A stretch of 64,000 nt of DNA, from NCBI GenBank assembly GCA_003252295.1, contig QKEV01000017.1, positions 34,931 through 98,930 of the forward strand. The letters are read 5' to 3'. The DNA is from a bacterium. GTDB lineage: Bacteria; Patescibacteriota; Minisyncoccia; Phycocordibacterales; UBA12088. The stretch's first letter is position 1, and each line of letters starts with the position of its first letter. Under the pieces are notes generated by a model. The model was not told where the DNA came from, did not search any database, and saw only the letters and a program-made list of their open reading frames with translations. Made by a program: the position numbers and the translations under genes. Of the stretch, positions 37,418 through 58,314 are shown piece by piece.

Positions 37418-37551
37418 GTTTTCAACTCTCTTTTCTCCACAAGCGCTACCTCCCCAAGGTGGCGCTTACTAGCTACATGTATTGACATATGCACCTCCTC
37501 ATATATTCTCCCCATAGGAAAACAAACTGACACTCAGACAAGGAGAACACC

Positions 37552-37887
37552 ATGGCATGGAAAAAAGGAACCGTAATACAGGATGATGCTGTTTTTTGGA
37601 CAATCTACGAAGGTGTGAACAGGTTAAGGAGAGTTGGTAACGTTGGTGGAAGATGGTACTACCTCCTCTTCACCACGGAGGGACGTGCTAGAAAATACTA
37701 TGATGCCAAGCCAAAAACCTTTTGCTCATTCAAGCAAAAGGTTGTTGATGCAATATCTTGGAAAGATTTACTTGCACTTACAAGTGCAGAAAGATTTCCT
37801 GATCAGGTTGCTGTTGTAAACCTCAAGCCTGAGGATGACAGTATCGAACCAAAAAATGTTGTTCGCCTTGAGTGTAAGCAGCTCTAA
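37552..37887 (+). CDS. hypothetical protein
   Basis: 111 aa. SD aaggaga. Followed by a terminator. Confidence 0.5.
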   Translation: MAWKKGTVIQDDAVFWTIYEGVNRLRRVGNVGGRWYYLLFTTEGRARKYYDAKPKTFCSFKQKVVDAISWKDLLALTSAERFPDQVAVVNLKPEDDSIEPKNVVRLECKQL

Positions 37888-37893
37888 CTCTCT

Positions 37894-37917
37894 TAAGCCC
37901 GTGTTTACACGGGCTTA
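37894..37917 (+). terminator. terminator
   Basis: taagcccgtg-ttta-cacgggctta hairpin. Confidence 0.55.
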
Positions 37918-38147
37918 CCTTGTATTTGACACAGTATCTACATGGGTTTACTATTTACCTACATATGAATTTCAGCGCAACGTTTTATTTTTGGTATCAG
38001 CTTTCCCGAAGAAGGTTGATTTTTGCGTTGGCTCGAAACTAAGAGAAACAGGACTCCAACTCAGACACCAGCTTTCTTCACAAGCTGGATTTTTTGTTCT
38101 TTAGAGGAAGTTCTTTCACATAACCAATACTTGAAGAGGTGAAAACA

Positions 38148-39404
38148 ATGCCTAAAATTCTGTCTATTAAAGCAGAATACGACGTAACAGTAGCCGACCT
38201 TATCAGTCTGCATAGAAGCGGGTATTCAGTGTTCCGTACATCACATGCTGGAAACTGGAGCTCATACAAGCTGCTTTTATCACAACTTGGCCTTCCTGAC
38301 TGTGTTTGGGATGTCACATGCATGCATGAGGACATCAAAAATCAACCACAAAAACAGTTTCTCGCAGGAGACACTATGTCTCTCCTCGATGAACCACCAG
38401 AAAAACCGATAAACGGTGAAAAACATCTCAGTTTATACCAACGATGCTGTAATGGCACTCACACTCTCTCTTCGTATCATCTTGAGCCACTAAAAAAACT
38501 CTACGGTAACGTAGTGTGTACACAGTCCGAGCTCCTGCTTGAAGAAGAAGAAAGATTAAAAAGAGTTTTCGCAGTGGTACAAAAATATGCACCAGAAATG
38601 ATCGGTAGATACATTCTACCCTGCGGTTGTATGGTAAACCTCAACCAAGTCTCACAAGATACGTATAAAGCTAGATGCAAACACCACACCGCTACTGTAC
38701 AAAAAGATGATCTTGCGGCTTCAGCAATCAGCACTTTGCACGAACTCAGGATACTTGCACTCAACCCAAAAGGGTACATACCCAAAGGCGGCGCTCTGTA
38801 CTCTTTCAACCTTGTAGTTGCAAGCTTTCTACTCTGGTCATTCTGGAAGTTTGGTGATAAACCGATCTATATGCTTTCAGGACCAGACATGATTGGGTAT
38901 GCCACAAAGGAAAGCTTTATCCGCAGTGTAGAGAATGTACTTACCCTCGTTGCTCAACATAGTCCTGACCTGATTCCAAGCAATGTCGATCTACGTGTCG
39001 TTCCAGCAACACTCTTTTGTTTCGGCTACCCAAGCGGGGATACTGCCGCAGAACAGGTGATGAAGGTTCATGATGAGATTATCAACCTTCAAAACATACT
39101 GTTTGCAAGCGGACGTGTTGATCCAAAAAAACCCAGTATGCTGCCTAAAAGGGCACTGCTCAAGGCAAATGATAAGATTGAAGAGCTTGCAAAAATGCTA
39201 CAAATGAGCGGCGTTACCTGGAACATTTTCATCAATCCTGCTAAGGATGTGTTCTTCTCTCAGCATGACCTCGAACACACCGGTAGAAGGATGACTGTGG
39301 ATGAAAAGTACCTCAACATGCCTTTTCGTTACATTGAGAAAACATTGACATCACTTCAGAAAGTAGAACAACTGCTCATTTCGCAGTTTTGTTCAAAAAA
39401 CTAG
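38148..39404 (+). CDS. hypothetical protein with Cys cluster (CCNGTH...CGC...CKHH)
   Basis: 418 aa from the ATG at 38148 (GAGGTG SD). No recognisable family. A cysteine-rich patch spans residues ~100-190. Confidence 0.45.
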   Translation: MPKILSIKAEYDVTVADLISLHRSGYSVFRTSHAGNWSSYKLLLSQLGLPDCVWDVTCMHEDIKNQPQKQFLAGDTMSLLDEPPEKPINGEKHLSLYQRCCNGTHTLSSYHLEPLKKLYGNVVCTQSELLLEEEERLKRVFAVVQKYAPEMIGRYILPCGCMVNLNQVSQDTYKARCKHHTATVQKDDLAASAISTLHELRILALNPKGYIPKGGALYSFNLVVASFLLWSFWKFGDKPIYMLSGPDMIGYATKESFIRSVENVLTLVAQHSPDLIPSNVDLRVVPATLFCFGYPSGDTAAEQVMKVHDEIINLQNILFASGRVDPKKPSMLPKRALLKANDKIEELAKMLQMSGVTWNIFINPAKDVFFSQHDLEHTGRRMTVDEKYLNMPFRYIEKTLTSLQKVEQLLISQFCSKN

Positions 39405-39458
39405 TGTACATGCTACACTGAAGGGGGCACATACCATGTAGCCCCCTTTCATTTTTTT

Positions 39459-40397
39459 ATGACACCGATAATAGACCTACATCAAGATCTTCTGCTCTAC
39501 GTTACACGTCCTGAACTATACAATGACACAGAACAGACAAACTTTGAGAAAATAAAAGAAAACAACCTTAAAGTGGTAACTGCTTCGGCTTTTCCTGTAC
39601 CACAAAACGAGGATTTTCTTCACGCATCTCTTCCACTCTTCATTGAAGAAGACCTAAAAGTATACATTAGTTATGTAAGAGAACACCCTGAATGGAAGAT
39701 CATTACAAATACTGATGAACTAGAAAAAACATTACAAGAAAAGGGCACTTTTGGACTTATCCTACACATAGAAGGATTAAATGTATTTGATACAGAAACC
39801 GGATGGGAAACGCTGCAACGTTGGTACGATATGGGTCTCCGCTCTATTGGTCCTGTGTGGAACGTAAAAAACCCTTTCGGTGGCGGAACAAAAGAGCTTG
39901 AGCTGGGCCTTACACCACTTGGTACAGAACTTATAGAGTGGTGCGAGAAAAAAGGACTCCTCTTTGACTGTGCACACATGAACGAAAAAACGTTTTGGGA
40001 TACAGCAAAAACCAGCAGACGTCCACTACTCGTAAGTCATGGAAATGCATCACATATTTGCCCTTCTCCACGCAACTATACAGATGAGCAACTCAAGGCT
40101 ATAGGAAAAAGTGGTGGTGTTATAGGAATATTCCTTTCGAAAAAGTTCATTACAGACAAAACAGAAGCGACTCTTGAGGACATTACTGCCCACATACTAC
40201 ATATTAAAGATGTAGCAGGAGAAGACGCTGTTGCCTTGGGCACTGATTTTGGCGGTATTCTCTCTGGATTTGTTGAAGGCATGGAAACAGTAGACGCTTT
40301 ACCAAATTTCCTCAAACAATTTAAAGTATCGTTTCGTGAAAAACTTGCATACAAAAATGCCCTCAGGATACAACACTCACACGTCTCATCTTCATAA
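39459..40397 (+). CDS. membrane dipeptidase (peptidase M19 family)
   Basis: N-terminal IIDLHQD, a central HIEG block, DCAHMNEKTFWD and a C-terminal GTDFGG. These match the M19 renal-dipeptidase-family metal ligands. Confidence 0.6.
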   Translation: MTPIIDLHQDLLLYVTRPELYNDTEQTNFEKIKENNLKVVTASAFPVPQNEDFLHASLPLFIEEDLKVYISYVREHPEWKIITNTDELEKTLQEKGTFGLILHIEGLNVFDTETGWETLQRWYDMGLRSIGPVWNVKNPFGGGTKELELGLTPLGTELIEWCEKKGLLFDCAHMNEKTFWDTAKTSRRPLLVSHGNASHICPSPRNYTDEQLKAIGKSGGVIGIFLSKKFITDKTEATLEDITAHILHIKDVAGEDAVALGTDFGGILSGFVEGMETVDALPNFLKQFKVSFREKLAYKNALRIQHSHVSSS

Positions 40398-40400
40398 CAC

Positions 40401-40425
40401 AAAACCCGCCTAGTGGGCGGGTTTT
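40401..40425. terminator. bidirectional terminator (convergent M19 / hup)
   Basis: aaaacccgcc-tagt-gggcgggtttt hairpin. Confidence 0.6.
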
Positions 40426-40449
40426 GTTTTGTATCGTAAAAACTAAGAT

Positions 40450-40722
40450 TTATCGAACTGCATCCTTTAGACCCTTTGCTGCGCGGAACTTTGGTACGCG
40501 CATAGCCTCGATCTGAATGGTCTCTCCTGTGCGAGGGTTACGTCCCTGTCGTGCTGGACGCATCTTTGTTGAAAAGATACCAAGTCCTGCGATTGACACC
40601 TCATCACCTGCTCGAAGAGCATCAACGATAGAGTCGATAGTGGTCTCAACTGCACGCTCAGCGTCAGCTTTTGTACCACCAAGTACACCGTGTACCTTCT
40701 CAATGATTTCTGCTTTATTCAT
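40450..40722 (-). CDS. hup: DNA-binding protein HU
   Basis: 90 aa. The MNKAEII...GLGIFSTKMRPARQGRNPRTGE...VPKFRAAKGLKDAV beta-arm pattern. Confidence 0.9.
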   Translation of the reverse strand: MNKAEIIEKVHGVLGGTKADAERAVETTIDSIVDALRAGDEVSIAGLGIFSTKMRPARQGRNPRTGETIQIEAMRVPKFRAAKGLKDAVR

Positions 40723-40739
40723 AAAATGCAAAATTACTT

Positions 40740-41225
40740 TTCCTTGTAATGACCACGTGACAGTGGACCTGAAAAAAGTATACAGTACGCCATTATTCCC
40801 GCAATGGACTCAAATAATAACTTACCATTTATACACATGGACACTTTTGCAACGAAAAAGTATGTATTTATAAAAAAATACAATGCTAATGAAAAATACG
40901 GCTTAAAAAAAAGATATATTACATACTATCGACGTCGATACTTAAACAGCAGGGCAGTACTCATATAGTATGTATTTAAAATGGCTACGTTGTGCCATTT
41001 TTTAAACATTACGATGCACAGTACGATGTTTTTTTATACGTAAACTAAAATGTATGTAAAAAATGCTACAGAAAAATATGTAGTACTATTTTTTTATGTT
41101 TTCAGCACGTAAAAACATTGAGTATACGTAGCCATAATGAAGTTCATGTAATATGTGTGTAAAAAAATACTAGACCAGTAAAATATAGCTCTGGCAAGAG
41201 CTACCCGCTCTATTTTTATGAAAAA
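40740..41225. other. ~480-bp AT-rich non-coding region upstream of hup
   Basis: No ORF with an RBS. Repeated tatgtat, tatgtag and atgtaa motifs, and the palindrome aaaatggctacgttgtgccatttt. Confidence 0.4.
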
Positions 41226-41227
41226 CA

Positions 41228-41250
41228 AAAAGCCTCACTAAGAGGCTTTT
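41228..41250 (-). terminator. terminator 3' of rny
   Basis: aaaagcctc-actaa-gaggctttt hairpin. Confidence 0.6.
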
Positions 41251-41265
41251 TGTTTTTCATGTTTA

Positions 41266-42792
41266 CTATCGAGCGTACTCTACTGCTCTATTCTCTCGTA
41301 TCACTGCAACCTTTATTTCTCCAGGATACTTGAGCTCTTGCTCTATACGCACTGCAATGCTTCGAGCAAGGTTACGTGCTTCGAGGTCACTCACCTTCTC
41401 AGGGTGTACAAAGATACGAACCTCACGTCCTGCTGAAATAGCATAGCTCTTCTCTACTCCATCAAAGCTATTTGCTATATTCTCCAAATCTTTCAAACGT
41501 TTTAGGTAGTTTTCAACTGAATCACGTCGCGCACCAGGCCGTCCTCCTGAAATAGAGTCAGCTACCTGCACAATAATAGACTCAGGTGTTTGGTATGGAT
41601 ACTCTTCATGGTGTGCTTCCATTGCCTGAATGATCTTTTCATCAACCCCAAACTTCTGAAGTATCCTTCGTCCTATTTCAACATGCGTGCCCTGTACATC
41701 ATGATCTACTGCTTTTCCTATATCATGCACAAGCGCTCCAGCTTTCGCTACCTGCACATCAGCCTTGAGCTCTTCAGCAAGCAATCCTGCAATATGCGCC
41801 ATTTCAATCGAGTGTTGCAACACATTTTGACCATACGAGGTACGGAAGTGGAGGCGTCCAAGCACCATGAGTGCCCGAGTGTCGAGGTTTACCACCCCTA
41901 CCTCATATGCAGCCTGTTCAGCTTTTTCCTTGATAATTCGATTTATATCATCAGTTGCTTTCTGTACCTGTTCTTCTATTTTTGCAGGTTGAATACGACC
42001 ATCAATAATAAGGTTTTCAAGTGCAACTCTCGCTATTTGCCTGCGAACAGGATCAAAACAGGAAAGGGTAATGAGTCCCGGTGTATCATCAATGAGTACA
42101 TCAACGCCTGTTGCACGCTCAAATGCACGGATATTTCTTCCCTCCTTACCAATGATCTTTCCTTTTATATCTTCATTTGGAAGGGCGATTGAGGTAGTGA
42201 GAACATCCGTAGTAACCGCATTACCAAGACGGTGTATTGCTGTAGTGAGTATATCCTGAGCCTTACGCTCCAACTTCTCCTCACCCACACGATCAAGTTT
42301 TTGCAAACGCACCGCAATATCTTCAGTACTCTCCTCCTCAATACGAGAAATGAGTTCCTCTTTTGCATCTTCTTTTGAGAGCTGTGCTATACGTTCAATC
42401 TCAGACTCAACACCTGCTTTAAGTTCATCAACACGTGCTTTCACTGTATGCACCTCTTCGATCTTCTTCTTTATCTGCTCAACCTCCTTGTCGAGATCCT
42501 GTTGACGCTTGTCGAGAAACTCTTCTCGATCTAGAATACGCGACTCAGATTTCTTAATAAACTCCTGTTTCTCTTTGACTTCTTCTTCGTATACTTTTCT
42601 TTTATCTTCTATCTTTTGCTCTCCCTCCTCCTCTATTTTTTTTGCTTTTTCTTTTGCCTCAAGCATCATTTGCTTGATCTCGAGCTCCATTGAGCCCTTT
42701 TTACCTGCTGCAACAATGTAACGCAGGTAGTAGCCAACAGCACCCCCAATGAGGGCACCGACAATTGCTACGATTGGTGTTAGTGGCGACAT
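41266..42792 (-). CDS. rny: ribonuclease Y
   Basis: N-terminal TM segment plus coiled coil, KH domain (IGKEGRNIR) and HD domain (LVHDIGKAVDHD). Confidence 0.9.
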   Translation of the reverse strand: MSPLTPIVAIVGALIGGAVGYYLRYIVAAGKKGSMELEIKQMMLEAKEKAKKIEEEGEQKIEDKRKVYEEEVKEKQEFIKKSESRILDREEFLDKRQQDLDKEVEQIKKKIEEVHTVKARVDELKAGVESEIERIAQLSKEDAKEELISRIEEESTEDIAVRLQKLDRVGEEKLERKAQDILTTAIHRLGNAVTTDVLTTSIALPNEDIKGKIIGKEGRNIRAFERATGVDVLIDDTPGLITLSCFDPVRRQIARVALENLIIDGRIQPAKIEEQVQKATDDINRIIKEKAEQAAYEVGVVNLDTRALMVLGRLHFRTSYGQNVLQHSIEMAHIAGLLAEELKADVQVAKAGALVHDIGKAVDHDVQGTHVEIGRRILQKFGVDEKIIQAMEAHHEEYPYQTPESIIVQVADSISGGRPGARRDSVENYLKRLKDLENIANSFDGVEKSYAISAGREVRIFVHPEKVSDLEARNLARSIAVRIEQELKYPGEIKVAVIRENRAVEYAR

Positions 42793-43020
42793 AGTATTTT
42801 TTCCCGTGCCGTCGCAGGTCTAAATGCTTTGAATTACAATAGTTATTTCAGAAATACTGCAAGCTCAACAGGAGTGCTTCCTTGGTAAGATCGTAAAAAA
42901 CTGTATTTCTTAAGCGGTGAAAACATGCGGTCGAAACGGAATCGGTACATTAATTCAATAAATTTATCATTACATCCGTTGCTCGCATTGTAGCAAAAAA
43001 AACAAAAATTGCACACAAAA

Positions 43021-43048
43021 AAACAAGCCACTTATACAAGTGGCTTGT
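43021..43048 (-). terminator. terminator
   Basis: aacaagccact-tataca-agtggcttgtt hairpin 3' of the acidic small ORF. Confidence 0.5.
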
Positions 43049-43061
43049 TTTGTTTTCATTT

Positions 43062-43247
43062 CTACTCAGTTACCGTATCTTCCTCTTCTGGCATTTCCAT
43101 TGCAGGAGCTTCTGTTTCTTCCATAACTGGAGCTTCTTCCATCACTGGTGCTGCCGCTTCGGTTGCTTCTTCTTCAACTGGCATATCATCTGCTACTGGA
43201 GCATCTACTACTGCATCGTCTTTTGGGGTGTCATCATGTCCAAACAT
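43062..43247 (-). CDS. small highly acidic protein (61 aa)
   Basis: Asp/Glu/Pro/Ala-rich with an own terminator. There is no good SD, so translation is uncertain. Confidence 0.3.
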   Translation of the reverse strand: MFGHDDTPKDDAVVDAPVADDMPVEEEATEAAAPVMEEAPVMEETEAPAMEMPEEEDTVTE

Positions 43248-43416
43248 AGTATTGTTGTTTTGTTACCTTTGTAAACAAATACATCCTCACATGACATTCG
43301 AACAACCCGCCACATAAGGACATATAACACTAAAAGGCACATCAGTGCCTCCCAGTAACTATTAGTATACATGCATTACTAGCAATGAGTAGCTACTATG
43401 TGTGTATAACTAAATT

Positions 43417-44520
43417 CTACTTTGCCATGTGTACTGTAGTAGTAGGGTAGGCAAACTCTATCCCCTCTTCTGCAAATTTTTCAAACAACTTGAAGTTAAT
43501 CTCTTGCTGTCTATCCATAAACACCTTGTAGTCTGCGTCCTGTACCTGATACACGCAAGCAAAATCAAGTGATGAGTCACCAAACCCTTTGAAGTGGGCA
43601 CGACTAAATTCAACCCCATCCACTGATTCAACAATCTTCTGCACCATATCCGGGATACGTCGCAACATCTCTGGTTTTGTCTCGTAAAGTACACCAAAAG
43701 CAAGATCGCCACGTCTTGTCTCCATCACCTTATAGTTCTGTATTCTTGCTGCTGTAAGCTCTTGATTTGAAAGCACCACCTCTTCTCCGGTTACTGACTC
43801 TAATCGTGTTGATTTAACACCGATCTGCTTTACCGTTCCTGCAGTGGTACCTGTTTGAATGAAATCACCTACTCGAAACGGTTTATCAAAGTAGAGCGAA
43901 AACGAACTGAAGAGGTCAGAGAGTATACCCTGTAGAGCAAACGCTATAGCAATACCTGCAACTCCAGCACCTGCCATGAGTGAGGTGACGTTTATACCAA
44001 AATTTGATAGCACCATGAGTATACCAAGCACCCATATAACACCTTTCGAAAGATTTGCTATAAGGTGAATAGCAGACTTAGTAGTTTCATCGTCTTCTTC
44101 GGCGAAGTGTTTAAAGGCAATATCCTCAACAAGAATTCCGACAATAACGACTGCTTGATACACGAGCCAAAGTACTAGTACAGCAGTAATTACACTATCT
44201 GCCGTACCATAAACATTGATAAACCGAAGCGCAAACCAGAAAGAGAGGAGAAGATAGAACGGTGGTGTAAAACTCCGTACCATTTTTACAAATACATCAT
44301 CTAGGTTTGTTTCTGTCTTCTTCGAGAGAAACGCAAGCCAAGAAAGTGCAAAGTACTGAACAAGAGCAAATATCGCTAAACCAAAAAGGAAAACAGTGAA
44401 TGAAAGCGCGTAGTCGCCTACTGAGTTTCCAAATAGTACTGTTGAGCTATCAACAGAGAAATACGCTAAAAAGCGCTCTACGTAAAGTGTAAGCTGTTCC
44501 ATATATTCGGAGTATAGCAC
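43417..44520 (-). CDS. mscS: small-conductance mechanosensitive channel (MscS family)
   Basis: 3-4 N-terminal TM helices, the pore-lining GAGVAGIAIAFALQG helix and a C-terminal beta domain. Confidence 0.8.
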   Translation of the reverse strand: MLYSEYMEQLTLYVERFLAYFSVDSSTVLFGNSVGDYALSFTVFLFGLAIFALVQYFALSWLAFLSKKTETNLDDVFVKMVRSFTPPFYLLLSFWFALRFINVYGTADSVITAVLVLWLVYQAVVIVGILVEDIAFKHFAEEDDETTKSAIHLIANLSKGVIWVLGILMVLSNFGINVTSLMAGAGVAGIAIAFALQGILSDLFSSFSLYFDKPFRVGDFIQTGTTAGTVKQIGVKSTRLESVTGEEVVLSNQELTAARIQNYKVMETRRGDLAFGVLYETKPEMLRRIPDMVQKIVESVDGVEFSRAHFKGFGDSSLDFACVYQVQDADYKVFMDRQQEINFKLFEKFAEEGIEFAYPTTTVHMAK

Positions 44521-44543
44521 GTAATCAAGTGTGACTACGTGTT

Positions 44544-46412
44544 CTACTCATTCTCTCCCACATCATCTCCTGTAGCAGGTTCACCTTCTTCTTCCTTACT
44601 TACCGCATCTCCAAGCACTTCAGTTTGTACCAAGTCCCATGGTATCTCAACACCATTTAGGTATACATGACCAAGCTGCACATCTTCTGGTGCCTCAATA
44701 CTCGCTGAATAACTCTTCTCTGTTTGGACCTGTAAGCATCCAACCTCATCTTCATTACTGTCGATTGTTATAGCAAGTGACACTACACCATCCTCTTCTG
44801 AGGCAACAGTACCAACAACATGGCACGGGGTCTCAAGTTCTAAACTTCCTGTGTATGTGTGTACACCCTCAGTGTAGGTATGCGTGAGTACATACCTCTG
44901 CTCTTCCGTTGTCTCATCAGCTTGTACATCAGTAGTTTCTTCTTGTGGTGTGTCAGTAATTTGTTCACCTTTTTCTTCAATCTCTCCTTCTAATGTCTCT
45001 ATGGTACGCTGTATCAACTTTAGCGCCTTTGTGAAGAGTTCTTCTGCATCGTCGTAATCCTCTAACACAAATGCTATGTCTCCACGAAGTTGGTAAGCAA
45101 CCGCATCTTTTATATGAGCATTTACCTGTTCAACAGTACTCACCTCGAAACCATTTTTTGTGAGAAGCAGTGTACGAGCATGCTGTATATCCGCTTCCAC
45201 TTCAGCACGAAGCTGTGTAAGTTCTGCAACATGTTCATCGACAAACTCTGTATCTTCTTCACCCTCACCTGTCGTCACAGTCTCATCCTCCTGAACACCC
45301 TCTTCTACCACCTGTACTTCTTCAATACTTTCATCCTCCATCCGCACCGTTGTGTCTTCAGATGGATATATCTGTACAGAAAATAGCTTTGCCACCTCTA
45401 AAAGCTGTACCACCTTTTGCAAGAGTGCTACAGCCTCCCTATAGACACTGTACGCATCCGAGTAGTTGTACTCTCCAAGTGCAGTATTCCCTTCTGCAAG
45501 CAACACCTTCCCATGTTCGATCTGTGCTGATACCTGCATACCCGTCTCAGAGGATGGATCTAGTTCTCCATAAAGATTCTCAGCATTTTCAAGCAACTCG
45601 AACACTCGAGCTTGAGCACGATACGTTGCACGTACACGCATGTTAGCAGAGTTGATACCGTCCTCATCTACAGGTGCAGTAACATCATCTGTACCTTCAG
45701 TTCCCTCAACTCCTTCTTTTTCAGTCGTCCCTATTTTCTCCTCTGCATCCTCACGTATCTTCCCCACCTCCATAGCTGCAGTACGGACCTGCTCTACTAG
45801 TTCGATAGAACTTTCCTGCGGTTCATCTTCTGATTCAACAATGAGTCGAGCAAGTACTGCTTCATGTGCATCAAGTGATTCTTCAAACTCACTTGATGCC
45901 TCTGCTGCAAGTACTGGGTCTGTTGCTTCATATGCAAGCACCTGTTCAACCACTGCCTCAGTATGCTCAGCAAACAATTTTGATACTTGCTCACGTGCAT
46001 CATCATCTAGTTTTCCTTCAGCAGCAAGCTGACTCGCTTCAACGAGTCGTCGTTTTGCACGTTCCTGTTCCCAAGCCATACGGTCTGCTTCATTGAGAAA
46101 TGCTGTTTTTACCTCCTCATTTATATTTACCTTTACTCCGTAGAGTAAATCTCCTGGAAGCGCATCACCTGCCGCGAAAGAAACACCGAACGTGCTAGTG
46201 GTAAGTACCGTAGCAATAACAAGGGCTCCAGAAACATGATGCATACGAAAAAATGGCAAGAATGATGGTTTGCTTACCTGTGTATCTACTGAAGATCGTA
46301 TAGGTTTGTACTCCATGTAGGAGACAATTGACTCACGCATACGAGCTTTGTCACTCTCTTCTAGTTTTACGTATTCTGTTCCTCTTTGGAACTGTGCTTC
46401 TAATTTTTTCAT
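44544..46412 (-). CDS. putative anti-sigma factor: membrane-anchored coiled-coil protein with conserved C-terminal domain
   Basis: Its ATG at 46412 abuts the TAA of the upstream ECF sigma gene (TAAATG). Cytoplasmic N-terminus, one TM helix (ALVIATVLTTSTFGVSFAAG), a long acidic coiled-coil region, and a C-terminal domain THTYTEGVHTYTG...NGVEIPWDL paralogous to 6163..7329. Confidence 0.55.
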   Translation of the reverse strand: MKKLEAQFQRGTEYVKLEESDKARMRESIVSYMEYKPIRSSVDTQVSKPSFLPFFRMHHVSGALVIATVLTTSTFGVSFAAGDALPGDLLYGVKVNINEEVKTAFLNEADRMAWEQERAKRRLVEASQLAAEGKLDDDAREQVSKLFAEHTEAVVEQVLAYEATDPVLAAEASSEFEESLDAHEAVLARLIVESEDEPQESSIELVEQVRTAAMEVGKIREDAEEKIGTTEKEGVEGTEGTDDVTAPVDEDGINSANMRVRATYRAQARVFELLENAENLYGELDPSSETGMQVSAQIEHGKVLLAEGNTALGEYNYSDAYSVYREAVALLQKVVQLLEVAKLFSVQIYPSEDTTVRMEDESIEEVQVVEEGVQEDETVTTGEGEEDTEFVDEHVAELTQLRAEVEADIQHARTLLLTKNGFEVSTVEQVNAHIKDAVAYQLRGDIAFVLEDYDDAEELFTKALKLIQRTIETLEGEIEEKGEQITDTPQEETTDVQADETTEEQRYVLTHTYTEGVHTYTGSLELETPCHVVGTVASEEDGVVSLAITIDSNEDEVGCLQVQTEKSYSASIEAPEDVQLGHVYLNGVEIPWDLVQTEVLGDAVSKEEEGEPATGDDVGENE

Positions 46413-46937
46413 TTATCTTTTTCCTAATTGGTCTACGTTTTCACTCAACCAAGCAATCCCCCTATGAATCCTTACTGAAATAGTGTTTACCGGAACTCCG
46501 AGCACCTCTGCAATCTCACGAGGCATAAGCCCATCAACAAACCGCATCACAATGACTTCTCTGTGTGTGTCAGGCATCTTTTCAATAAGTCTTGGCACGT
46601 CACGAGCGTCTATTGAAAACTCTAGTTCCTCTCTACTACCCTCAACCAACTCTGCAAACGCTCCCTCCGGGACTTCACTTTCGTCTAAAAGTGCATCAAG
46701 TGATTCTGTTTTCTTCTTCCTGTACTCGTCTATTATGAGGTGATTTAAGGTGCGGTAGAGAAATGGTTTGTAGTTTTCTACTGTATTTCCCTTAACTAGG
46801 TAGTCCCACGTCTTCGTGAACACATCTGAAACAATGTCCTTCGCGCGCTCAGGATCAGAAACACGAAAATAGCAATGCCTATAGAGCGCATCTGCATATT
46901 TGTCGAATGCTTCTAAATAGGCTTTTTCGTGTTTCAT
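46413..46937 (-). CDS. ECF-type RNA polymerase sigma-70 family factor
   Basis: 174 aa with sigma-70 region 2 (YRHCYFRVSDPERAKDIVSDVF) and region 4 (REVIVMRFVDGLMPREIAEVLGVPVNTISVRIHRG). Confidence 0.85.
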   Translation of the reverse strand: MKHEKAYLEAFDKYADALYRHCYFRVSDPERAKDIVSDVFTKTWDYLVKGNTVENYKPFLYRTLNHLIIDEYRKKKTESLDALLDESEVPEGAFAELVEGSREELEFSIDARDVPRLIEKMPDTHREVIVMRFVDGLMPREIAEVLGVPVNTISVRIHRGIAWLSENVDQLGKR

Positions 46938-47045
46938 TTGTTACCACCTTGTTACTGGAGACGGATAATAGTGTCATCTCTTACGACCTTGTGGAAATAA
47001 CCACAAAATGACTAAGTATTCTATATGTTCTACTAGAATGCATAC

Positions 47046-47654
47046 TTACGCAAGGTTTTTCAACATTGCAACCATTTCAGGAAAAGTATCACCCAAAAAA
47101 TGTCCTCTGTTAGGGAGAGTAATATATTGTGCATCAGGCACCATTTCTTTAAAAATGGCTTGGTTGTCAAATGAAACAACAGGGTCATCCTCACTATGGA
47201 AAAATACGACCTTTTCAGCATTTTCGGTCAATACCCCCAAATTACCTTTCAAAGTAAAGCTATTTTGTTCATCTTTTAGCACCTTTGAACTAAGGTGCTC
47301 TGGAGCAACCAAAAAGAGTCCAGGAACTGGTGCTGTAAGTATCACCTCTGAGTAGTACTTTACGAGAAACATAGCACCAAGCGAATGTCCAACAAAAATA
47401 GGCATCTCATCAATAGTACTCAGAACACGCTCAAACCACAGCTTCCATAGCTCATAAGTTGCATTGTCTGCTATAGGCATTCTTGGTAAAAAAACCTCAA
47501 AAGCACCATCAAGTTGCATCTCCAAAGTAGCCTTCCAATCGACCCTTGATTTCATTCGATCAAGATACACTTCTCGAGTCTTGAGACTTTCCAAGTATGC
47601 CTCTGGTGATGGGTACGTGTCCCCTCCATGTATTACAAGTAGTTTTTTTGACAT
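47046..47654 (-). CDS. alpha/beta serine hydrolase (RBBP9/YdeN-like)
   Basis: LLVIHGG start and the GHSLG nucleophile elbow, with length typical of the PF06821-like family. Confidence 0.55.
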   Translation of the reverse strand: MSKKLLVIHGGDTYPSPEAYLESLKTREVYLDRMKSRVDWKATLEMQLDGAFEVFLPRMPIADNATYELWKLWFERVLSTIDEMPIFVGHSLGAMFLVKYYSEVILTAPVPGLFLVAPEHLSSKVLKDEQNSFTLKGNLGVLTENAEKVVFFHSEDDPVVSFDNQAIFKEMVPDAQYITLPNRGHFLGDTFPEMVAMLKNLA

Positions 47655-47670
47655 GACATTTTTATTTACA

Positions 47671-47994
47671 TTACACACCCTCCTCTAAACAAGCGGGATG
47701 CAAAAACGGTATCGTGTTTCTACTATACTCCTTCACGAGTCCTGCAGTCACACTCATAACACCAAAGAGTAACGAGAGCACGAGCGCAAAACCAAGTTTC
47801 TTTAAGTATTTTCTTCCACCTAACGAAAAGTACATTATGAGGATCATTACACAGAGGATCGATAGGAATACTGAGACGAGTATCCCAAAACCTATGAGCA
47901 CTTTTGCTGGATCACTACAAACTTCCTCCTGCGCAAAAGTTACGTATGGAAAAGATAAAAGTACTACAAAAAACCAAGGTCGACACCTTCTCAT
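47671..47994 (-). CDS. small membrane protein (paralog of 48056..48391)
   Basis: 107 aa with a signal/TM segment. Shares a Y[FY]x[LR]GGRK[YH][LM]xK motif with the next gene. Confidence 0.35.
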   Translation of the reverse strand: MRRCRPWFFVVLLSFPYVTFAQEEVCSDPAKVLIGFGILVSVFLSILCVMILIMYFSLGGRKYLKKLGFALVLSLLFGVMSVTAGLVKEYSRNTIPFLHPACLEEGV

Positions 47995-48055
47995 AACTTA
48001 AAGAATAGCACGGAAGTACTATAATTTTAGTGTAAATAGTGTGTGCAACGTACCA

Positions 48056-48391
48056 CTAAGACAACCCAACACTACATGCTTCTATACTCAAAAAATATCC
48101 CAGTATTCCTAGTATCATTAAGATAGTAGTAACGTATAACATCTTGTACATATGTTTTCTGCCACCTCGAAGATAGTATACAACCGTCGACATGCCAACA
48201 ATGGAACACGCAATAGAAATAAATAGTGTGTTACCTGTAGCAAACACTTCCACAACACCACGCGAAGGAATGCATGCGGTCACAGCAGAACGATTTATCC
48301 CAAGCAGTGCAAAAAGAGTGAGTATAACCGCAACTATAAATTTATATGGTTTACCCATATCGAAAGGATAACATAGACATCTTATATACAA
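48056..48391 (-). CDS. small membrane protein
   Basis: 111 aa with 3 TM segments and YYLRGGRKHMYK. Confidence 0.35.
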   Translation of the reverse strand: MYIRCLCYPFDMGKPYKFIVAVILTLFALLGINRSAVTACIPSRGVVEVFATGNTLFISIACSIVGMSTVVYYLRGGRKHMYKMLYVTTILMILGILGYFLSIEACSVGLS

Positions 48392-48459
48392 TGTTGAATG
48401 TAAACATGTATACGCCCTACAGAGAGGGCGTATTTTTTATGAATGCTTCAAGGGTAACA

Positions 48460-48669
48460 TCAGTCCTTAAGTACAATTCCAAAAAAAGCATTGCAACAGA
48501 GTGAAGGTATAAAGCCACACATGAAACCGATGATCAGGATACTTGGAAGTGGACTTGTTGAAATATCCTTCAGCATCTCCCACCCTAAATAGAGCACATA
48601 CCCACTTGCACTGAGAAATAATACAGCAATAAATACATTCTCCATATATTCACCTATTCTTCGCTTCAT
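48460..48669 (-). CDS. small membrane protein
   Basis: 69 aa with two TM helices. Confidence 0.3.
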   Translation of the reverse strand: MKRRIGEYMENVFIAVLFLSASGYVLYLGWEMLKDISTSPLPSILIIGFMCGFIPSLCCNAFFGIVLKD

Positions 48670-48940
48670 ACATCACCCCCTATACAAGTGTTAGTCTTTT
48701 CTGTTTCTACCTGTAAAAGTAGCATGTATTGCAACTTTGTGAAGGAGTACATTGACGTAACCACCACAACATGATTACATGCCTGTAGTGCCTGAAGGTG
48801 GTCCTCCAGTCCGGCTTCCACATGAAATAGACTGGTTTCTCATAACGATGTTCCGCGATCAGTGAGGAAAAAAACAGCGGTGAGTAGAAGGTTTAGTGGC
48901 AACAGTGTCCCTTCTACAGTTGTTACAGACACTATTGTCG

Positions 48941-49008
48941 CCCCGAGGTAAGCGCTCACCTCGGGGTTGTTTTTTAAAAACACCCTGCGAATCACTTCGC
49001 AGGGTGTT
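48941..49008 (-). terminator. two tandem hairpins 3' of the FMN reductase gene
   Basis: cccgaggt-aagcgctc-acctcggg, followed by aacaccctgcgaa-tcac-ttcgcagggtgtt. The second hairpin is identical to the one at 50037..50066. Confidence 0.6.
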
Positions 49009-49034
49009 GCATTTTCTTGTTTGTATCATCGAAC

Positions 49035-49616
49035 CTATGAACGCGCATGCTGCAGTGCTGTGCCCCACCACACCAACTGTTCTGTCATATCAGTAAGCGC
49101 TTTGTCATACGTATCCAGAGCACCTTCTTGTATGTTCCCCTCTTCATCAAGGAACAGCCAAGGTGCTTGGATATGTACTGCATTTCGTATTGGTGCCATC
49201 TGTAGCTCTACTGCCACCTGTCGCAGCTGCTCCACCACACGTCCACCACCAACACTACCGTAGGAAACAAAACCAACCGCCTTATTGTTCCACTCGCCAT
49301 ATATAGAATCAAGGGCATTCTTCAAGACTGCACTGTATCCATGATTGTATTCTGGTGCAACAACAATGAATGCATCAGCTTCACCTATTTTTGTAGCAAA
49401 CTCCCGAACCTCTTTCTTTGTGTAGTTACCGTCTTTCACGTATGCAGGACTGGCAGGTTCATCAAAAAATGGCAGGTTGCTATCTCGAAGATCGATTACT
49501 TCGTACGATATGTCTTTATATTCTTCCAAAGTATTGGTTATCCATGGGATAAGCTTTTCACTGAACCGACCCTCACGGGTACTCCCTAAAATCACTTTAA
49601 TGTGTAACATGGTCAT
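49035..49616 (-). CDS. NAD(P)H-dependent FMN reductase (flavodoxin-like fold)
   Basis: ILGSTREGR...VVAPEYNHGYS...FVSYG, the NADPH-dependent FMN reductase family signature. Confidence 0.75.
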   Translation of the reverse strand: MTMLHIKVILGSTREGRFSEKLIPWITNTLEEYKDISYEVIDLRDSNLPFFDEPASPAYVKDGNYTKKEVREFATKIGEADAFIVVAPEYNHGYSAVLKNALDSIYGEWNNKAVGFVSYGSVGGGRVVEQLRQVAVELQMAPIRNAVHIQAPWLFLDEEGNIQEGALDTYDKALTDMTEQLVWWGTALQHARS

Positions 49617-49739
49617 ATAGTTTAGTTTGTAAGTAACAAGTAGTGTAGTGCTATCACTTTACTTTGTAAAGTAGATATACCAGTTGCAGTACAAATACTT
49701 TACTTTGTAAAGTTATCAAAGTTTGGTATAGTAGCATAT

Positions 49740-50027
49740 ATGCCTAGCAAAGACTGCCCAATAACAAGAGTTGCGACACTGCTTTCTGATACTTGGACCA
49801 TACTCATTCTCCATGCACTTCGAGAGAGCCCGAAGCGTTTCTGCGAGCTTGAAAAATGGCTTGATGGTATTTCTACACGCACTCTCACCCTAAAACTCAA
49901 ACGACTCACTGGAGAAAAACTCATTCAAAAAAATGACACAGGGTACTATGAGGTGACACAAAAAGGAGCAGGTCTAAAGATTCTCGAAGATGCAATGATC
50001 AAGTACAGTAAGATGTACTTGAAGTAA
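49740..50027 (+). CDS. HxlR-family winged-helix transcriptional regulator
   Basis: 95 aa. CPI...LSDTWTILIL...RFCELEKWLDGISTRTLTLKLKRL pattern. Divergent from the FMN reductase. Confidence 0.8.
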   Translation: MPSKDCPITRVATLLSDTWTILILHALRESPKRFCELEKWLDGISTRTLTLKLKRLTGEKLIQKNDTGYYEVTQKGAGLKILEDAMIKYSKMYLK

Positions 50028-50036
50028 AAGTTTTGA

Positions 50037-50066
50037 AACACCCTGCGAATCACTTCGCAGGGTGTT
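50037..50066. terminator. hairpin shared by convergent hxlR and peptide gene c
   Basis: aacaccctgcgaa-tcac-ttcgcagggtgtt, a 13-bp perfect stem. Identical 30-mer at 48979..49008. Confidence 0.6.
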
Positions 50067-50076
50067 TTGTTTTCAG

Positions 50077-50190
50077 CTATTTGGAAGCGCTTGCCTTCCG
50101 TTCGCTTTTTGAATGAACTCTCTTCTGTTTTTTAGCCACCTTTCCTGGACGCGGAATGTTGTGTCCGCGCGTCACTGCCCCGAATGCCAT
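50077..50190 (-). CDS. small peptide c (37 aa), candidate RiPP precursor
   Basis: MAFGAVTRGHNIPRPGKVAKKQKRVHSKSERKASASK. SD aaaaggaga 7 nt upstream. N-terminal motif shared with peptides a and b. Confidence 0.4.
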   Translation of the reverse strand: MAFGAVTRGHNIPRPGKVAKKQKRVHSKSERKASASK

Positions 50191-50287
50191 AGTGTCTCCT
50201 TTTGTATTTACATGTTGATTTTACGTACACCAAGTTTACAGCCGGACGAGGTACAAAACACCCTTTTGTTGTTGCTGTGATTGCCAT
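50132..50287 (-). CDS. small peptide b (51 aa), candidate RiPP precursor
   Basis: MAITATTKGCFVPRPAVNLVYVKSTCKYKRRHYGIRGSDARTQHSASRKGG. SD aggagga. Overlaps a and c in different frames. Confidence 0.35.
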   Translation of the reverse strand: MAITATTKGCFVPRPAVNLVYVKSTCKYKRRHYGIRGSDARTQHSASRKGG

Positions 50288-50378
50288 ATTTCCTCCTTAC
50301 GGACTTACTTCTTCTTGATTGACTTCCTGTGGGCCTAGGTACAAAGTGACTCCTTGTTGCTACAGGTGCAAATGCCAT
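50208..50378 (-). CDS. small peptide a (57 aa), candidate RiPP precursor
   Basis: MAFAPVATRSHFVPRPTGSQSRRSKSVRRKYGNHSNNKRVFCTSSGCKLGVRKINM. SD aaggaggg 4 nt upstream. Begins 23 nt after the radical-SAM gene stop. Confidence 0.45.
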   Translation of the reverse strand: MAFAPVATRSHFVPRPTGSQSRRSKSVRRKYGNHSNNKRVFCTSSGCKLGVRKINM

Positions 50379-50401
50379 ATCTCCCTCCTTATCCATAACA
50401 T

Positions 50402-51349
50402 TTATCGCAAGAGTTCACGTACAAGCTTGTATTCTTTTTTTGCATAACCATTTGCGACCTCAAGAACGCGCTCATTCGTGGCAACATGCCCAAACCGTGA
50501 ATCATCTGCATCAGCATTCACATAAAACTTTCCGTTCCAAGAAAGATTCCTCCCAACAAGCGTGTCAATGGAAAGTGGCTGGTACGAAATGTAGATTCCT
50601 TCCACCTCAGCCTCTAGACTGTAATCATGTATCTCCCACACATACTCCTTGAGTATCGGCATAAGAGTTTGCACATGCTCCGGCAAAACAAGCTTGATGA
50701 GCTTACCACAACCATGTACAAGTTTCTCAAACACATCACACAGTTCCGTGTCAGAGAAAAAAGGCATCCTGTTCCTGTTTCCTAAGACCGGTAACACAGG
50801 GGTACAAGATAAACGCACATCACGTTTACACACCATATTCTCGAACCTGTCCCAAGAACCAAAGTTAACAGGCGACACACAGCAAGAAATGATAGGATCA
50901 TAACCTTTAAATTTGAGGTTATGTATCGCTTCCCAGGCAATAGCACACGACCCCTTCATGCCTCGCTGTTTATCATGGTCTTCTGCTACACCATCCACTG
51001 AAATGTTGATGTACTCGTAGTACTGCATGAGTTCAGGATACTTCTGAATAGTAAAACCATTGTCCACTATCCCAATCTTTTTCCCTGAAGACCTACAGTA
51101 GTTCTCAATAAATGCGGCACCACGTGGTGAAAGGATTCTGCCAGCATAGGCAACCTCACTGCCCCATGCTACGAGTTGCGCTATCTGCTCTGACCAATCA
51201 TCTACAACCGGTATATTACGAGTATCGTGTGACCAGTAGCAGTGTTTGCACCTGAGATTACATACTCCTTCTATCGTTGCCGCGACATACACTGGATCAG
51301 GAACTACCAAGTAACAACCATTTTCAATAAGTTCTTGCATGAGTGTCAT
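50402..51349 (-). CDS. radical SAM enzyme with C-terminal Cys-rich (twitch/SPASM-like) domain
   Basis: CNLRCKHC (CxxxCxxC) at residues 30-37, an ISVDG block, and a downstream cluster ISCCVSP...C(K)...SC. SD aaaggaga. Confidence 0.7.
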   Translation of the reverse strand: MTLMQELIENGCYLVVPDPVYVAATIEGVCNLRCKHCYWSHDTRNIPVVDDWSEQIAQLVAWGSEVAYAGRILSPRGAAFIENYCRSSGKKIGIVDNGFTIQKYPELMQYYEYINISVDGVAEDHDKQRGMKGSCAIAWEAIHNLKFKGYDPIISCCVSPVNFGSWDRFENMVCKRDVRLSCTPVLPVLGNRNRMPFFSDTELCDVFEKLVHGCGKLIKLVLPEHVQTLMPILKEYVWEIHDYSLEAEVEGIYISYQPLSIDTLVGRNLSWNGKFYVNADADDSRFGHVATNERVLEVANGYAKKEYKLVRELLR

Positions 51350-51557
51350 AACATTCTCCTTTATTTGGATTGCAGCTTCATGTTACAAAAGACTTTATAT
51401 AATCTGTCAACAGTGTAGAGGTTTTGAAGATGTTTTTGAAATTTTCTTATACTTTATACCTAAAAACTAAATATCGCTTTATTTTCAAGCATATTTTGTA
51501 TAAATAAAGTGTCAATATTTCTTTACAGTTTATACATCTTTGTTATGATGTGAATAT

Positions 51558-52343
51558 ATGCAACTGCTACAACTTTCAAAAAACGAAAATAAAATTTTCA
51601 CCCAATTAAAGCAGGGTGACTCTACACCTCTCGAACTTTCTCGCAGTACACACATTACACGCCCAACTGTGTATGAAACCCTAAAGAAACTTAAGGCACG
51701 AAAACTTGTGCAAACAAAGATCGTACACGGAAAAAAATACTGGACACTTGAAGATGAGCGAGTTATTGAAGATGAGCTATACAAAGCAAAAAAGGCATTG
51801 CTTGATATTTCTGAAACAACAGAAGAAGTCCATGGAAGATGTGAGTCAAATATCATCATCTATAAAGATGAAAAAAGTATACAAAAGCTACTCTTCAATT
51901 TACTATCACATACAAAAAATGAACGAATGTACGGCATACAAGGTAATAACATTGAAATTGGTTGGAGTAAGATATTCTCACCTGATGCAACCAACAAGCT
52001 AAATAGGTTGGTGAAGAAAAACAAGATAATCATGGAAGCAGTCATACCGAGAGGTTGGTTTGAGAAACATGCAAAGTTATGGGGCAAAGAATGGGTAAAG
52101 CACTTTATGGGACGCATGACCATAGCACACGAGATTGACGAGGAGTATTTCAAGCATGGCGCACAGTTGTTTGCTACAAAAAATGCTCTGTATCTGCTTT
52201 CGTTTAATGAGTCACTTGCAATAGAGATACGCAACTCAGAAACACAGAAGCTTGTACTTTCACTACTCTCATACATTCAGGACAATGCTAAACGAGTAGA
52301 ACCAAATACAATACTTGGAAAATTGGTTGAAAATGTAGAATAA
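51558..52343 (+). CDS. TrmB-like winged-helix transcriptional regulator
   Basis: N-terminal HTH (NKIFTQLKQGDSTPLELSRSTHITRPTVYETLKKLKARKLV) plus a ~170-aa C-terminal domain. Divergent from the rSAM operon. Confidence 0.55.
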   Translation: MQLLQLSKNENKIFTQLKQGDSTPLELSRSTHITRPTVYETLKKLKARKLVQTKIVHGKKYWTLEDERVIEDELYKAKKALLDISETTEEVHGRCESNIIIYKDEKSIQKLLFNLLSHTKNERMYGIQGNNIEIGWSKIFSPDATNKLNRLVKKNKIIMEAVIPRGWFEKHAKLWGKEWVKHFMGRMTIAHEIDEEYFKHGAQLFATKNALYLLSFNESLAIEIRNSETQKLVLSLLSYIQDNAKRVEPNTILGKLVENVE

Positions 52344-52350
52344 AATTTTT

Positions 52351-52620
52351 CCGGGACACTTCGTTATCGAACTCGTTCATCTTCGACTCGTTCAATGTAG
52401 ATAATGTGGGAGCCGAGAATCGTCCCCGGGATGACTAAGTATTTTCTTGCCGGGACGCTATGCTATCGAACTCGCTCACCTTCGACTCGTTCCTCGCTCA
52501 GGTTCACTCTCTAAGAACCCACGGTTCTCAGCGTTCGTCGTAAACTCCTCACAGCTCTCCTTCAAGGGAAAACTAGAGTTTTCCCTACCCCTTTCCATGT
52601 TCGATTCCCGGCGACTCCGT
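52351..52620. repeat. tRNA-flank repeat element(s) downstream of tRNA-Pro
   Basis: 52456..52607 is homologous to the 142-bp insert at the tRNA-Gly(GCC) locus (gctatcgaactc...agaacccacggttctcagcgtt...ggaaaactagagttttcc...cctttccatgttcgattc). It is flanked by tRNA-Pro T-arm-like halves (gccggga / ccggcgactccg). A partial tandem copy lies at 52351..52440, with cttcgactcgttc repeated 100 bp apart. Confidence 0.6.
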
Positions 52621-52670
52621 AAAAATACAGAAAAACCTACAGAACATTTCTGTAGGTTTTTCTGTATTTG

Positions 52671-52741
52671 TCGGGGAGCCGGGAATCGAACCCGGGCCAC
52701 ACGGTCCCAAACCGCGTACACTACCACTATGCTACACCCCG
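52671..52741 (-). tRNA. tRNA-Pro (anticodon TGG)
   Basis: Acceptor cggggtg/ctccccg with one mismatch, anticodon stem cgcgg/ccgtg with loop TTTGGGA, T arm cccgg-ttcgatt-ccggg. Preceded by a terminator hairpin. Confidence 0.75.
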
Positions 52742-52818
52742 TAGTAGAACTTATTTCCAAGTGCCAAAATAGAGTACCACTTTTTCAAAAAAATGCTAAT
52801 CACTTTTTCAAAAAAATG

Positions 52819-53214
52819 CTAATCAAGTAGTACACTCTCAAGCACTTTGACGTAGACCTTTTTACTTTCGGTAAGTATCTGCACAACTATTACATCCACT
52901 GTCCAATCATGTGCACCACCAAGTCCTCGCTCGAGCAAATACACCTCGATCACTCTCTTCAGCCGTGTCTTTTTATTTCTATCTATATGGTCTTCTGGCC
53001 GATAGGTTTCTTCACCCTCGTGTAAAACACTAAATATTTCGGAGGATTTTACTTCTACAAAGTGCAGTACATCGTCTTTTATACACACAACATCCAACTC
53101 TCCGCACTTTTTTCTATAATTTCGCTCAACTATGCGATACTTTCTGTTTTCTAGATACTGTGCAGCAATATCCTCACCAAGCTGTCCTATGGAAATATGC
53201 TTATTTTTAGCCAT
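52819..53214 (-). CDS. yraN: YraN-family (UPF0102) endonuclease-like protein
   Basis: 131 aa. GEDIAAQYLENRKYRIVERNYR...GELDVV...FVEVK pattern. Confidence 0.7.
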   Translation of the reverse strand: MAKNKHISIGQLGEDIAAQYLENRKYRIVERNYRKKCGELDVVCIKDDVLHFVEVKSSEIFSVLHEGEETYRPEDHIDRNKKTRLKRVIEVYLLERGLGGAHDWTVDVIVVQILTESKKVYVKVLESVLLD

Positions 53215-53335
53215 ATTTGTTTTTATCGTACATGTCCTTTATTCACATATACACAGACTTATCCCCAGTTATGCACATGTGTGGCAAAAGAGCAGCTAGT
53301 ACGAAACTAGCTGCTCCAAAAACCTCTGCAGTATC

Positions 53336-58313: not shown

Positions 58314-58314
58314 T

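Follow-up and report, generated by a model that had tools for sequence, protein, structure and literature searches.

The 64,000-nt stretch of Patescibacteria DNA analysed here (contig QKEV01000017.1, referred to below as the window) contains, at 46984..43328 on the minus strand, a set of elements that we read, with a probability of about 65%, as a sigma-autoregulated operon: a promoter, the gene of an extracytoplasmic function (ECF) sigma factor, the gene of an anti-sigma factor that is bound to the membrane and carries a distal beta-domain (protein A) and the gene of an MscS-family mechanosensitive channel. The anti-sigma role of A is a prediction from comparative evidence, well supported by gene order and promoter context. 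The beta-domain of A is also found at the C-terminus of a second protein of the window, protein B, and belongs to a large family. An initial annotation, made from the letters of the window, had described A and B as paralogous membrane-anchored coiled-coil proteins with a novel C-terminal domain in common, one of them coupled to an ECF sigma factor.

A sigma factor gene coupled to the gene of protein A

The gene located directly upstream of A encodes an ECF (group 4) sigma-70 factor of 174 amino acids (aa). The protein scored 79.7 bits against TIGR02937 (sigma70-ECF; cut-off 42.9) and matched the Pfam families of regions 2 and 4 (PF04542, PF08281/PF04545) with 34.4 bits for Sigma70_r2 and 50.4 bits for Sigma70_r4_2, and the Pfam scan of the protein found no region 3. 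It is the sole sigma match in the window. The sigma open reading frame (ORF) lies without any gap 5′ of A, on the minus strand that also carries B, and the sigma stop codon and the start codon of A meet in the sequence TAAATG. Both the identity of this neighbour and the abutting start agree with the initial annotation.

The conservation of this arrangement was surveyed by scanning one genome per species for the invariant motif LPGDxLYxVK, which gave 80 Patescibacteria loci encoding a module of N-terminus, transmembrane (TM) helix and DUF5667 region, and by locating sigma ORFs in the related loci with a profile seeded from the sigma factor of the window. A sigma ORF was found directly upstream and on the same strand in approximately 70 of the 80 reference-genome loci, and many of the sigma/DUF5667 gene pairs overlap by 4 nt. 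The clear exceptions correspond either to contig ends or to proteins that are also devoid of the cytoplasmic N-terminal segment, as is the case for the DUF5667 proteins of L044, L052, L067, L071 and L079, where neither the segment nor an upstream sigma gene is present. At the A-like metagenome loci, the sigma gene was present in six out of six. The pair formed by the sigma gene and the A-type gene is thus conserved across Patescibacteria, and the homologues with a named source all come from Paceibacterota, Kaiserbacteria, Minisyncoccia and related lineages. Because the synteny and the promoter context described below both support the anti-sigma position proposed by the initial annotation, A can be read as an anti-sigma factor; that it occupies this position is well supported by strong comparative evidence. 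Within the library searched, there was no paper on DUF5667, on these sigma factors or on ECF systems of the candidate phyla radiation (CPR).

A promoter motif upstream of the sigma genes

Bipartite k-mers were counted over the 200 nt that precede each of 68 sigma genes of the related loci. The pattern GTAA-N14-18-CGTC occurred in 35 of these 68 regions, compared with 0.2 in shuffled sequences. Extraction of the motif gave 37 of the 68 regions, likewise to be set against 0.2 in shuffles; the extracted motifs read GTAAGA ... CGTC(T/A), and the spacing from GTAA to CGTC was exactly 17 nt in 36 out of 37. The site of the window, GTAAGAGATGACACTATTATCCGTC, is located at 46960..46984(-), 22 nt 5′ of the sigma ATG; a ribosome-binding site, AAGGTGG, lies between the two. 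When scored with a weight matrix built from 36 other loci, this site reached 20.8 bits, whereas the runner-up in the 64-kb window, on both strands, reached 11.8 bits and fell inside the range of the shuffle maxima (11-16). Such an outlier score provides independent support for an autoregulated ECF operon, and we infer that GTAAGA-N15-CGTC is the promoter recognised by this sigma factor. If this is true, the code would allow the regulon of any CPR genome to be mapped. A second exact match to the pattern, at 48754..48778(-), was discarded as chance level: it reads GTAATC, 1.26 matches are expected per window and its 10.6 bits lie below the shuffle maxima.

Two further observations concern the motif in the related loci. 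In many of them the -10 element CGTC lies just 4-7 nt before the sigma ATG, a distance so short that it suggests that the sigma mRNAs of these loci are leaderless; the window has instead the 22-nt leader with AAGGTGG. Besides, about 13 of 71 loci (L005, L007, L011, L014, L016, L019, L021, L022, L026, L036, L040, L050 and L054) have a second copy of GTAAGA-N15-CGTC within the coding sequence of the anti-sigma gene; gene A of the window has none. The internal copy is located approximately 90-130 nt into the ORF (4094..4118 in L036), past the N-terminal helices and before the TM helix, and it is always in frame, encoding Val-Arg-x5-Arg. Val is encoded there by GTA in 12 of 13 cases, where 24% would be expected, and Arg by AGA in 11 of 15 (14% expected) and by CGT in 13 of 15 (21% expected). 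Since this codon choice is far from the background, selection would be acting on the DNA of the motif, which looks like a sigma-dependent promoter giving an anti-sigma protein without its sigma-binding end.

Downstream of A, the operon probably has the MscS gene as its third member. The terminator scan detected no terminator-like site in the short gap between the stop codon of A and the MscS gene; it reported two weak stem-loops just within the MscS ORF (44476..44463 and 44456..44439), and its strongest terminator-like site was the hairpin located 3′ of the MscS gene.

Architecture of protein A

A has approximately 55 full-length orthologues with 34-52% identity, about half of which are annotated with PF18915 (DUF5667). 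On A itself, this family matched residues 84-182 with 24.7 bits, the gathering cut-off being 27, and the orthologues P0005 and P0013 scored 28.0 and 33.6 bits. The DUF5667 region begins with the invariant motif ALPGDxLYxVKxNxNE. A single hydrophobic segment (residues 62-82, Kyte-Doolittle >=1.6) follows a 60-residue N-terminus in which 11 Lys/Arg stand against 8 Asp/Glu, whereas the exterior part is strongly acidic and brings the net charge of the protein to -91. This charge pattern, together with the helix that AlphaFold placed at residues 57-81, bears out the topology of the initial annotation, a cytoplasmic N-terminus followed by one TM helix, and marks A as a member of the DUF5667 family that is predicted to cross the membrane once, with its N-terminus inside.

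The AlphaFold model of A, based on an alignment of 23 orthologues, had a mean predicted local distance difference test score (pLDDT) of 74. Its two three-helix bundles were modelled with a pLDDT of 82-95, and the acidic linkers that separate and flank them are disordered (<50). A TPR_2 match of 29.1 bits at residues 438-466 corresponds to a single TPR-like hairpin in the second of these bundles. With regard to the long acidic coiled coil that had been attributed to A, the acidic helical region was indeed found, and the single coiled coil was not, for AlphaFold resolved the region into three bundles joined by disordered linkers.

The N-terminal segment contains the motif L-x3-EK-x2-MRE-x-LV-x-YM-x-YKPIR, conserved both in the alignment of orthologues and in the 80 reference-genome loci. 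Residues 1-56 include no Cys, so the zinc-binding anti-sigma (ZAS) motif is absent. A does not belong to any recognised class of anti-sigma domain.

The beta-domain shared by proteins A and B

The presence of a common C-terminal domain in A and B, noticed in the initial annotation, was confirmed by formal alignment. Residues 508-594 of A and 298-386 of B align with 28% identity and E=4e-12 (BLASTP with compositional adjustment), and a profile of 64 family members from which A and B had been left out gave B 100.8 bits and A 88.5 bits, with no other match among the 775 ORFs of the window. The alignment and the independent profile exclude chance and composition as the source of the similarity. 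A resemblance by accident, conceivable for two highly acidic, Glu-rich proteins, is thus refuted by these two results, by the family search and by the confident model of the common region, and is left with a practically negligible probability.

The family was collected by an exhaustive HMMER search with a two-sequence profile of A and B against representative clusters at 50% identity; a word-index search with the two-domain alignment returned no homologue. The HMMER search retrieved at least 374 clusters at E<=1e-3, 35 of them at E<=1e-10. Among the best 150 matches, 114 are proteins of 130-200 aa in which a short linker joins the domain to a hydrophobic anchor at the N-terminus, and about 22 are A-like, 530-660 aa long, and carry the domain C-terminally. 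Odd fusions join the domain to META domains (P0024) or to PsbP (P0029). The only clearly different architecture is that of P0024, a lipoprotein-like protein of 542 aa in which two beta-domains are each followed by a META (HslJ-like) domain, with a Cys-rich tail at the end.

The consensus of the family reads H-x-[YF]-x2-G-x-H-T-[YF]-x-G...P-T-P-C...V-A-E-S-x-P-E-Q...C-x-Q-V...F-x-V...A-S-x2-A...N-G, and the conservation reaches 98% for each of the two Cys, 95% for the His at position 19 and 85% for the His at position 12. The key residues of A are H511, G516, H518, G522, C530 and C559. The domain modelled with an alignment of 66 sequences had a mean pLDDT of 92.7, a predicted template modelling score of 0.81 and seven beta-strands. 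Because a TM or signal segment precedes it in every case and its pair of Cys is near-invariant, the domain is predicted to be extracytoplasmic, in line with the sensor location suggested by the initial annotation.

The domain had also been called novel, and this holds as far as annotation is concerned. Pfam-A contained no match to it in ten family members and sub-threshold noise only in seven more; NCBIfam gave no match to it on A or B; the family profile found nothing among the PDB sequences; and its homologues are called hypothetical in every named source. The structural searches were likewise negative: Foldseek of the domain model against the PDB gave a best E of 0.12 with a template modelling score of ~0.3, and a viral structure library gave a best E of 2e-3 with a score of 0.26 and nothing convincing. 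The domain is not rare, since it forms at least 374 clusters and its main form is a stand-alone protein of ~150 aa. Small beta-sandwiches used for comparison were the NigD-like C-terminal domain (4pqx/3qwn), PA4063, ZrgA and PF27154 ('ORF11_beta'). For PF27154, precomputed matches, all weak, were present in 5 of 120 small homologues and in 1 of the 59 proteins that resemble A, and the viral structure library gave no match. An assignment to the MliC/PliC lysozyme inhibitor family (PF09864, cut-off 22 bits) was rejected, since it was sub-threshold in Pfam and lacked support from the fold. Taken as a whole, the beta-domain family is large, unannotated and Patescibacteria-centred, and its members are predicted cell-surface proteins.

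Metagenome loci were scanned with 12 closer beta-domain sequences as query. Among the neighbours of the small homologues, LytR_C lies upstream in 11 of 64 loci and a thioredoxin-like protein anchored in the membrane lies downstream in 8 of 64; an AI-2E transporter and CutA also recur. The neighbourhoods are variable and the LytR_C and thioredoxin-like pairs are lineage-specific, so these neighbours gave no function to transfer. The thioredoxin-fold neighbour (Redoxin/AhpC-TSA; 4481..5044 in L083/L084, 5185..5745 in L085, e.g. also L154) has W-A-S-W-S-P in place of CxxC and is presumably redox-inactive.

Protein B

B begins with a segment of residues 1-34, continues with a helical region rich in Glu, Arg and Gln and ends with the beta-domain, and it has no match in Pfam or NCBIfam. 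Its orthologues are P0007 (46% identity over the full length, the sole one among the best 150 matches) and L096. The initial annotation had given B the same architecture as A, which did not hold: B has an N-terminus that resembles a Sec signal peptide, no cytoplasmic segment and no DUF5667. The N-terminus reads MNQKNTVETARFVPLAMAIVLFFVLGALAFIAHA/EE (...FIAHA/EE), where P0007 has ...FQAQA/EA. Because this segment is signal-peptide-like, B may be secreted rather than anchored. Nor are A and B recent duplicates, as the word paralogues could imply, since the domain of B is 40-43% identical to the A-like domains of other genomes and only 28% identical to that of A.

Upstream of B, after a pyrophosphatase gene, a terminator-like hairpin can be read directly in the sequence, and the promoter motif is absent both by exact pattern and by matrix. 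A place for B in the sigma regulon was rejected at this level of evidence for want of the motif, and the hairpin and the missing motif together indicate that B is apparently not under this sigma factor. The acidic protein of 124 aa encoded after B has homologues whose genes follow the B-like genes of L090 and L096 by 21 and 26 nt, and a DUF2730 match in Pfam that is sub-threshold only; as judged from this gene order, it is a predicted conserved partner of the B-type proteins.

Proposed mechanism and alternative explanations

In the mechanism proposed for the operon, the cytoplasmic helices of A (residues 1-33) would hold the sigma factor at the membrane. The large acidic extracytoplasmic part, predicted to comprise the DUF5667 bundle, the two three-helix bundles with their flexible linkers and, at the far end, the beta-domain of disulfide type, would receive an envelope signal, and this signal would inactivate A, probably by proteolysis finishing with an intramembrane cut. 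The freed sigma factor would then transcribe its own operon, including the mechanosensitive channel, an osmotic safety valve. The beta-domain, lying farthest out, would be the part of A most likely to meet a ligand or partner; its place at the distal end, its degree of conservation and its two Cys are consistent with a role either in sensing such a ligand or partner or in anchoring to the wall or S-layer. The window also contains a gene of the Peptidase_M50 (site-2 protease) family at 30024..30683(+), whose 219-aa product has HEVSH and LDG motifs. This product is a candidate intramembrane protease for the cleavage of the anti-sigma factor and would make regulated intramembrane proteolysis possible.

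Several points weigh against this scheme. No anti-sigma domain was detected by Pfam, even at E<=10, in the N-terminal ~80 residues of A and nine orthologues, and the ~33 structured residues of the N-terminus, modelled with moderate AlphaFold confidence, fall short of the length of a class I anti-sigma domain. The MscS gene is found at the matching position only in the closest relatives (L108 and L157), and the M50 gene lies 14 kb from the operon with no specific link to it. With regard to the beta-domain, A has SEEDGV in place of the ES-x-PEQ of the family, and the domain is present in just 2 of the 80 sigma-linked DUF5667 loci and missing in the other 78. The last count implies that coupling to the sigma factor does not require the beta-domain, which is an accessory head found on a single branch of the family.

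The explanation that competes best concerns the beta-domain, which could be an anchoring or adhesion module for the cell wall, the S-layer or a host surface, the sensing being done by the DUF5667 bundle or the control being proteolytic. This is a possibility to be kept in mind, although we hold it for clearly less likely than not to be the case. It would fit the prevalence of the stand-alone anchored form, the fusions to the unrelated META and PsbP, the envelope genes often found among the neighbours and the dispensability of the domain in 78 of 80 loci, but no carbohydrate- or cell-wall-binding family was recognised by sequence or fold, and the variable, lineage-specific neighbourhoods speak against it as well.

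A more far-reaching version of the anti-sigma reading would regard the ~95-residue module, with its H-x-Y-x2-G-x-HTY-x-G motif and Cys pair, as an undescribed fold family of the Patescibacteria surface and, in A, as the head that senses a ligand or partner in a new class of anti-sigma factors. Such factors would bind sigma through a minimal segment of two helices, have DUF5667 as their stalk and couple a signal from the envelope or from contact with a host to an autoregulated ECF regulon, a mechanosensitive channel included. We regard this version as doubtful, at perhaps one chance in four.

Another explanation is that A is not an anti-sigma factor at all but a structural protein of the envelope or surface, co-transcribed with the ECF sigma factor and controlled by it, the sigma factor being regulated otherwise. 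The missing match to a known anti-sigma domain, the large extracytoplasmic array of stalk-like helical bundles with a terminal beta-domain that takes up most of the protein (residues 84-622), and the comparable extracellular design of B, which has no sigma factor, could all be understood in this way. However, the N-terminal motif is conserved together with the sigma gene across very divergent loci, the two genes mostly overlap or are coupled in translation, and the five DUF5667 proteins that lack the N-terminal segment lack the sigma gene too, as a sigma-binding N-terminus predicts. A purely structural role is for these reasons unlikely. Slightly less probable still is that the beta-domain acts as an extracytoplasmic metal or redox module in which His511, His518 and the acidic residues of ES-x-PEQ would bind a metal and the Cys pair would be redox-active; the conserved His, His and Glu and a low-Z resemblance to small periplasmic metal-binding sandwiches point weakly in this direction.

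Comparison with known anti-sigma systems

The predicted operon resembles RpoE/RseA, SigW/RsiW and SigV/RsiV in several respects. The sigma gene is located directly upstream, with its translation coupled to that of the partner; the partner starts in the cytoplasm, crosses the membrane by one TM helix and is for a large part extracytoplasmic; the predicted promoter is autoregulatory and bipartite with a CGTC -10 element; and the genome contains an M50-family protease gene. In contrast to RseA, RsiW and RsiV, A has ~33 structured cytoplasmic residues in two helices, with neither a Cys/His zinc motif nor a Pfam anti-sigma match, and its exterior is composed of DUF5667, helical bundles and an unannotated beta-domain. 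The class I anti-sigma domain comprises about four helices in 70-90 aa, and its ZAS members have H-x3-C-x2-C. None of this is found in A, which has no Pfam match, no Cys in residues 1-56 and two short helices. Class II (CnrY-type) anti-sigma factors are small proteins with a very short cytoplasmic segment that work together with a separate periplasmic sensor, CnrX. The very short two-helix cytoplasmic segment predicted for A before its single TM helix is reminiscent of them in layout, whereas A has an extracytoplasmic part of its own of 540 residues. As for PF18915, residues 84-182 of A align with it, orthologues pass the cut-off and NCBI calls a distant relative 'DUF5667 domain-containing protein'; on the other hand, A stays below the cut-off (24.7 bits <27) and the majority of DUF5667 proteins have no C-terminal beta-domain. 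The model with the best support is an ECF switch of the usual type, assembled from unusual components.

To our knowledge, Patescibacteria (CPR) have tiny genomes with few regulators, and almost nothing is known of how they sense their envelope or their hosts. The analysis provides a putative sigma/anti-sigma pair conserved across the group, a predicted promoter code and a common surface domain with a confident model and no structural relative. Its scope is modest: one more ECF system and one more domain of unknown function, with no new principle.

Features and surroundings of the locus

Table 1. Positions of the elements of the sigma-protein A locus and of the protein B locus in the window, with the segments of the AlphaFold model of A
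Feature	Position	Strand	Size or residues	Basis or remarks
Predicted ECF-type promoter	46960..46984	minus		-35 GTAAGA 46984..46979, 15-nt spacer, -10 CGTC 46963..46960
ECF sigma gene	46413..46937	minus	174 aa	Pfam and TIGR02937 matches
Protein A, DUF5667 family, C-terminal beta-domain; putative anti-sigma factor with one TM pass	44544..46412	minus	622 aa	Orthologues, alignment, sigma synteny
A, cytoplasmic N-terminus, proposed sigma-binding segment	46245..46412	minus	1-56	Conserved motif, AlphaFold helices
A, single TM helix	46170..46244	minus	57-81	Kyte-Doolittle, AlphaFold
A, membrane-proximal helical bundle, DUF5667 region	45711..46163	minus	84-234	PF18915, AlphaFold
A, two three-helix bundles and acidic linkers	44958..45641	minus	258-485	AlphaFold, TPR_2
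A, all-beta domain	44622..44900	minus	505-597	BLASTP, profiles, AlphaFold
A model, two short cytoplasmic helices			2-12, 19-33	pLDDT 60-75
A model, disordered linker			34-56	
A model, TM helix			57-81	
A model, five-helix bundle			91-234	pLDDT 85-93
A model, three-helix bundle			258-343	
A model, three-helix bundle			387-485	
A model, beta-domain			507-596	
A model, acidic tail			597-622	
MscS-family mechanosensitive channel gene	43417..44520	minus		Pfam MS_channel_1st, 2nd and 3rd; database gene call begins at 44502
Terminator-like hairpin 3′ of the MscS gene	43328..43357	minus		13-pair stem, then T-rich tail
Protein B, ATG start	6163..7329	minus	388 aa	Start common to public gene call and orthologue
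B, beta-domain	6166..6444	minus	~296-388	BLASTP, profile
Acidic single-TM protein	5763..6137	minus	124 aa	25 nt downstream of B

Three consecutive small hydrophobic ORFs with Cys residues (69-111 aa) are located on the minus strand at 47671..47994, 48056..48391 and 48460..48669, 5′ of the region of a hydrolase gene and the sigma gene, and the Pfam scan of two of them (107 and 111 aa) gave no match. The weak motif match at 48754..48778 lies near these three ORFs. The contig of the window is present in NCBI, in JGI and in the Logan assembly of SRR7216773, and an Rfam scan of the window identified four tRNAs and nothing else. The GC skew is negative across the whole window (1..64000), with a cumulative value that declines steadily to -2.0, and the majority of the genes, including the four tRNAs, are on the minus strand, which fits a single replichore.

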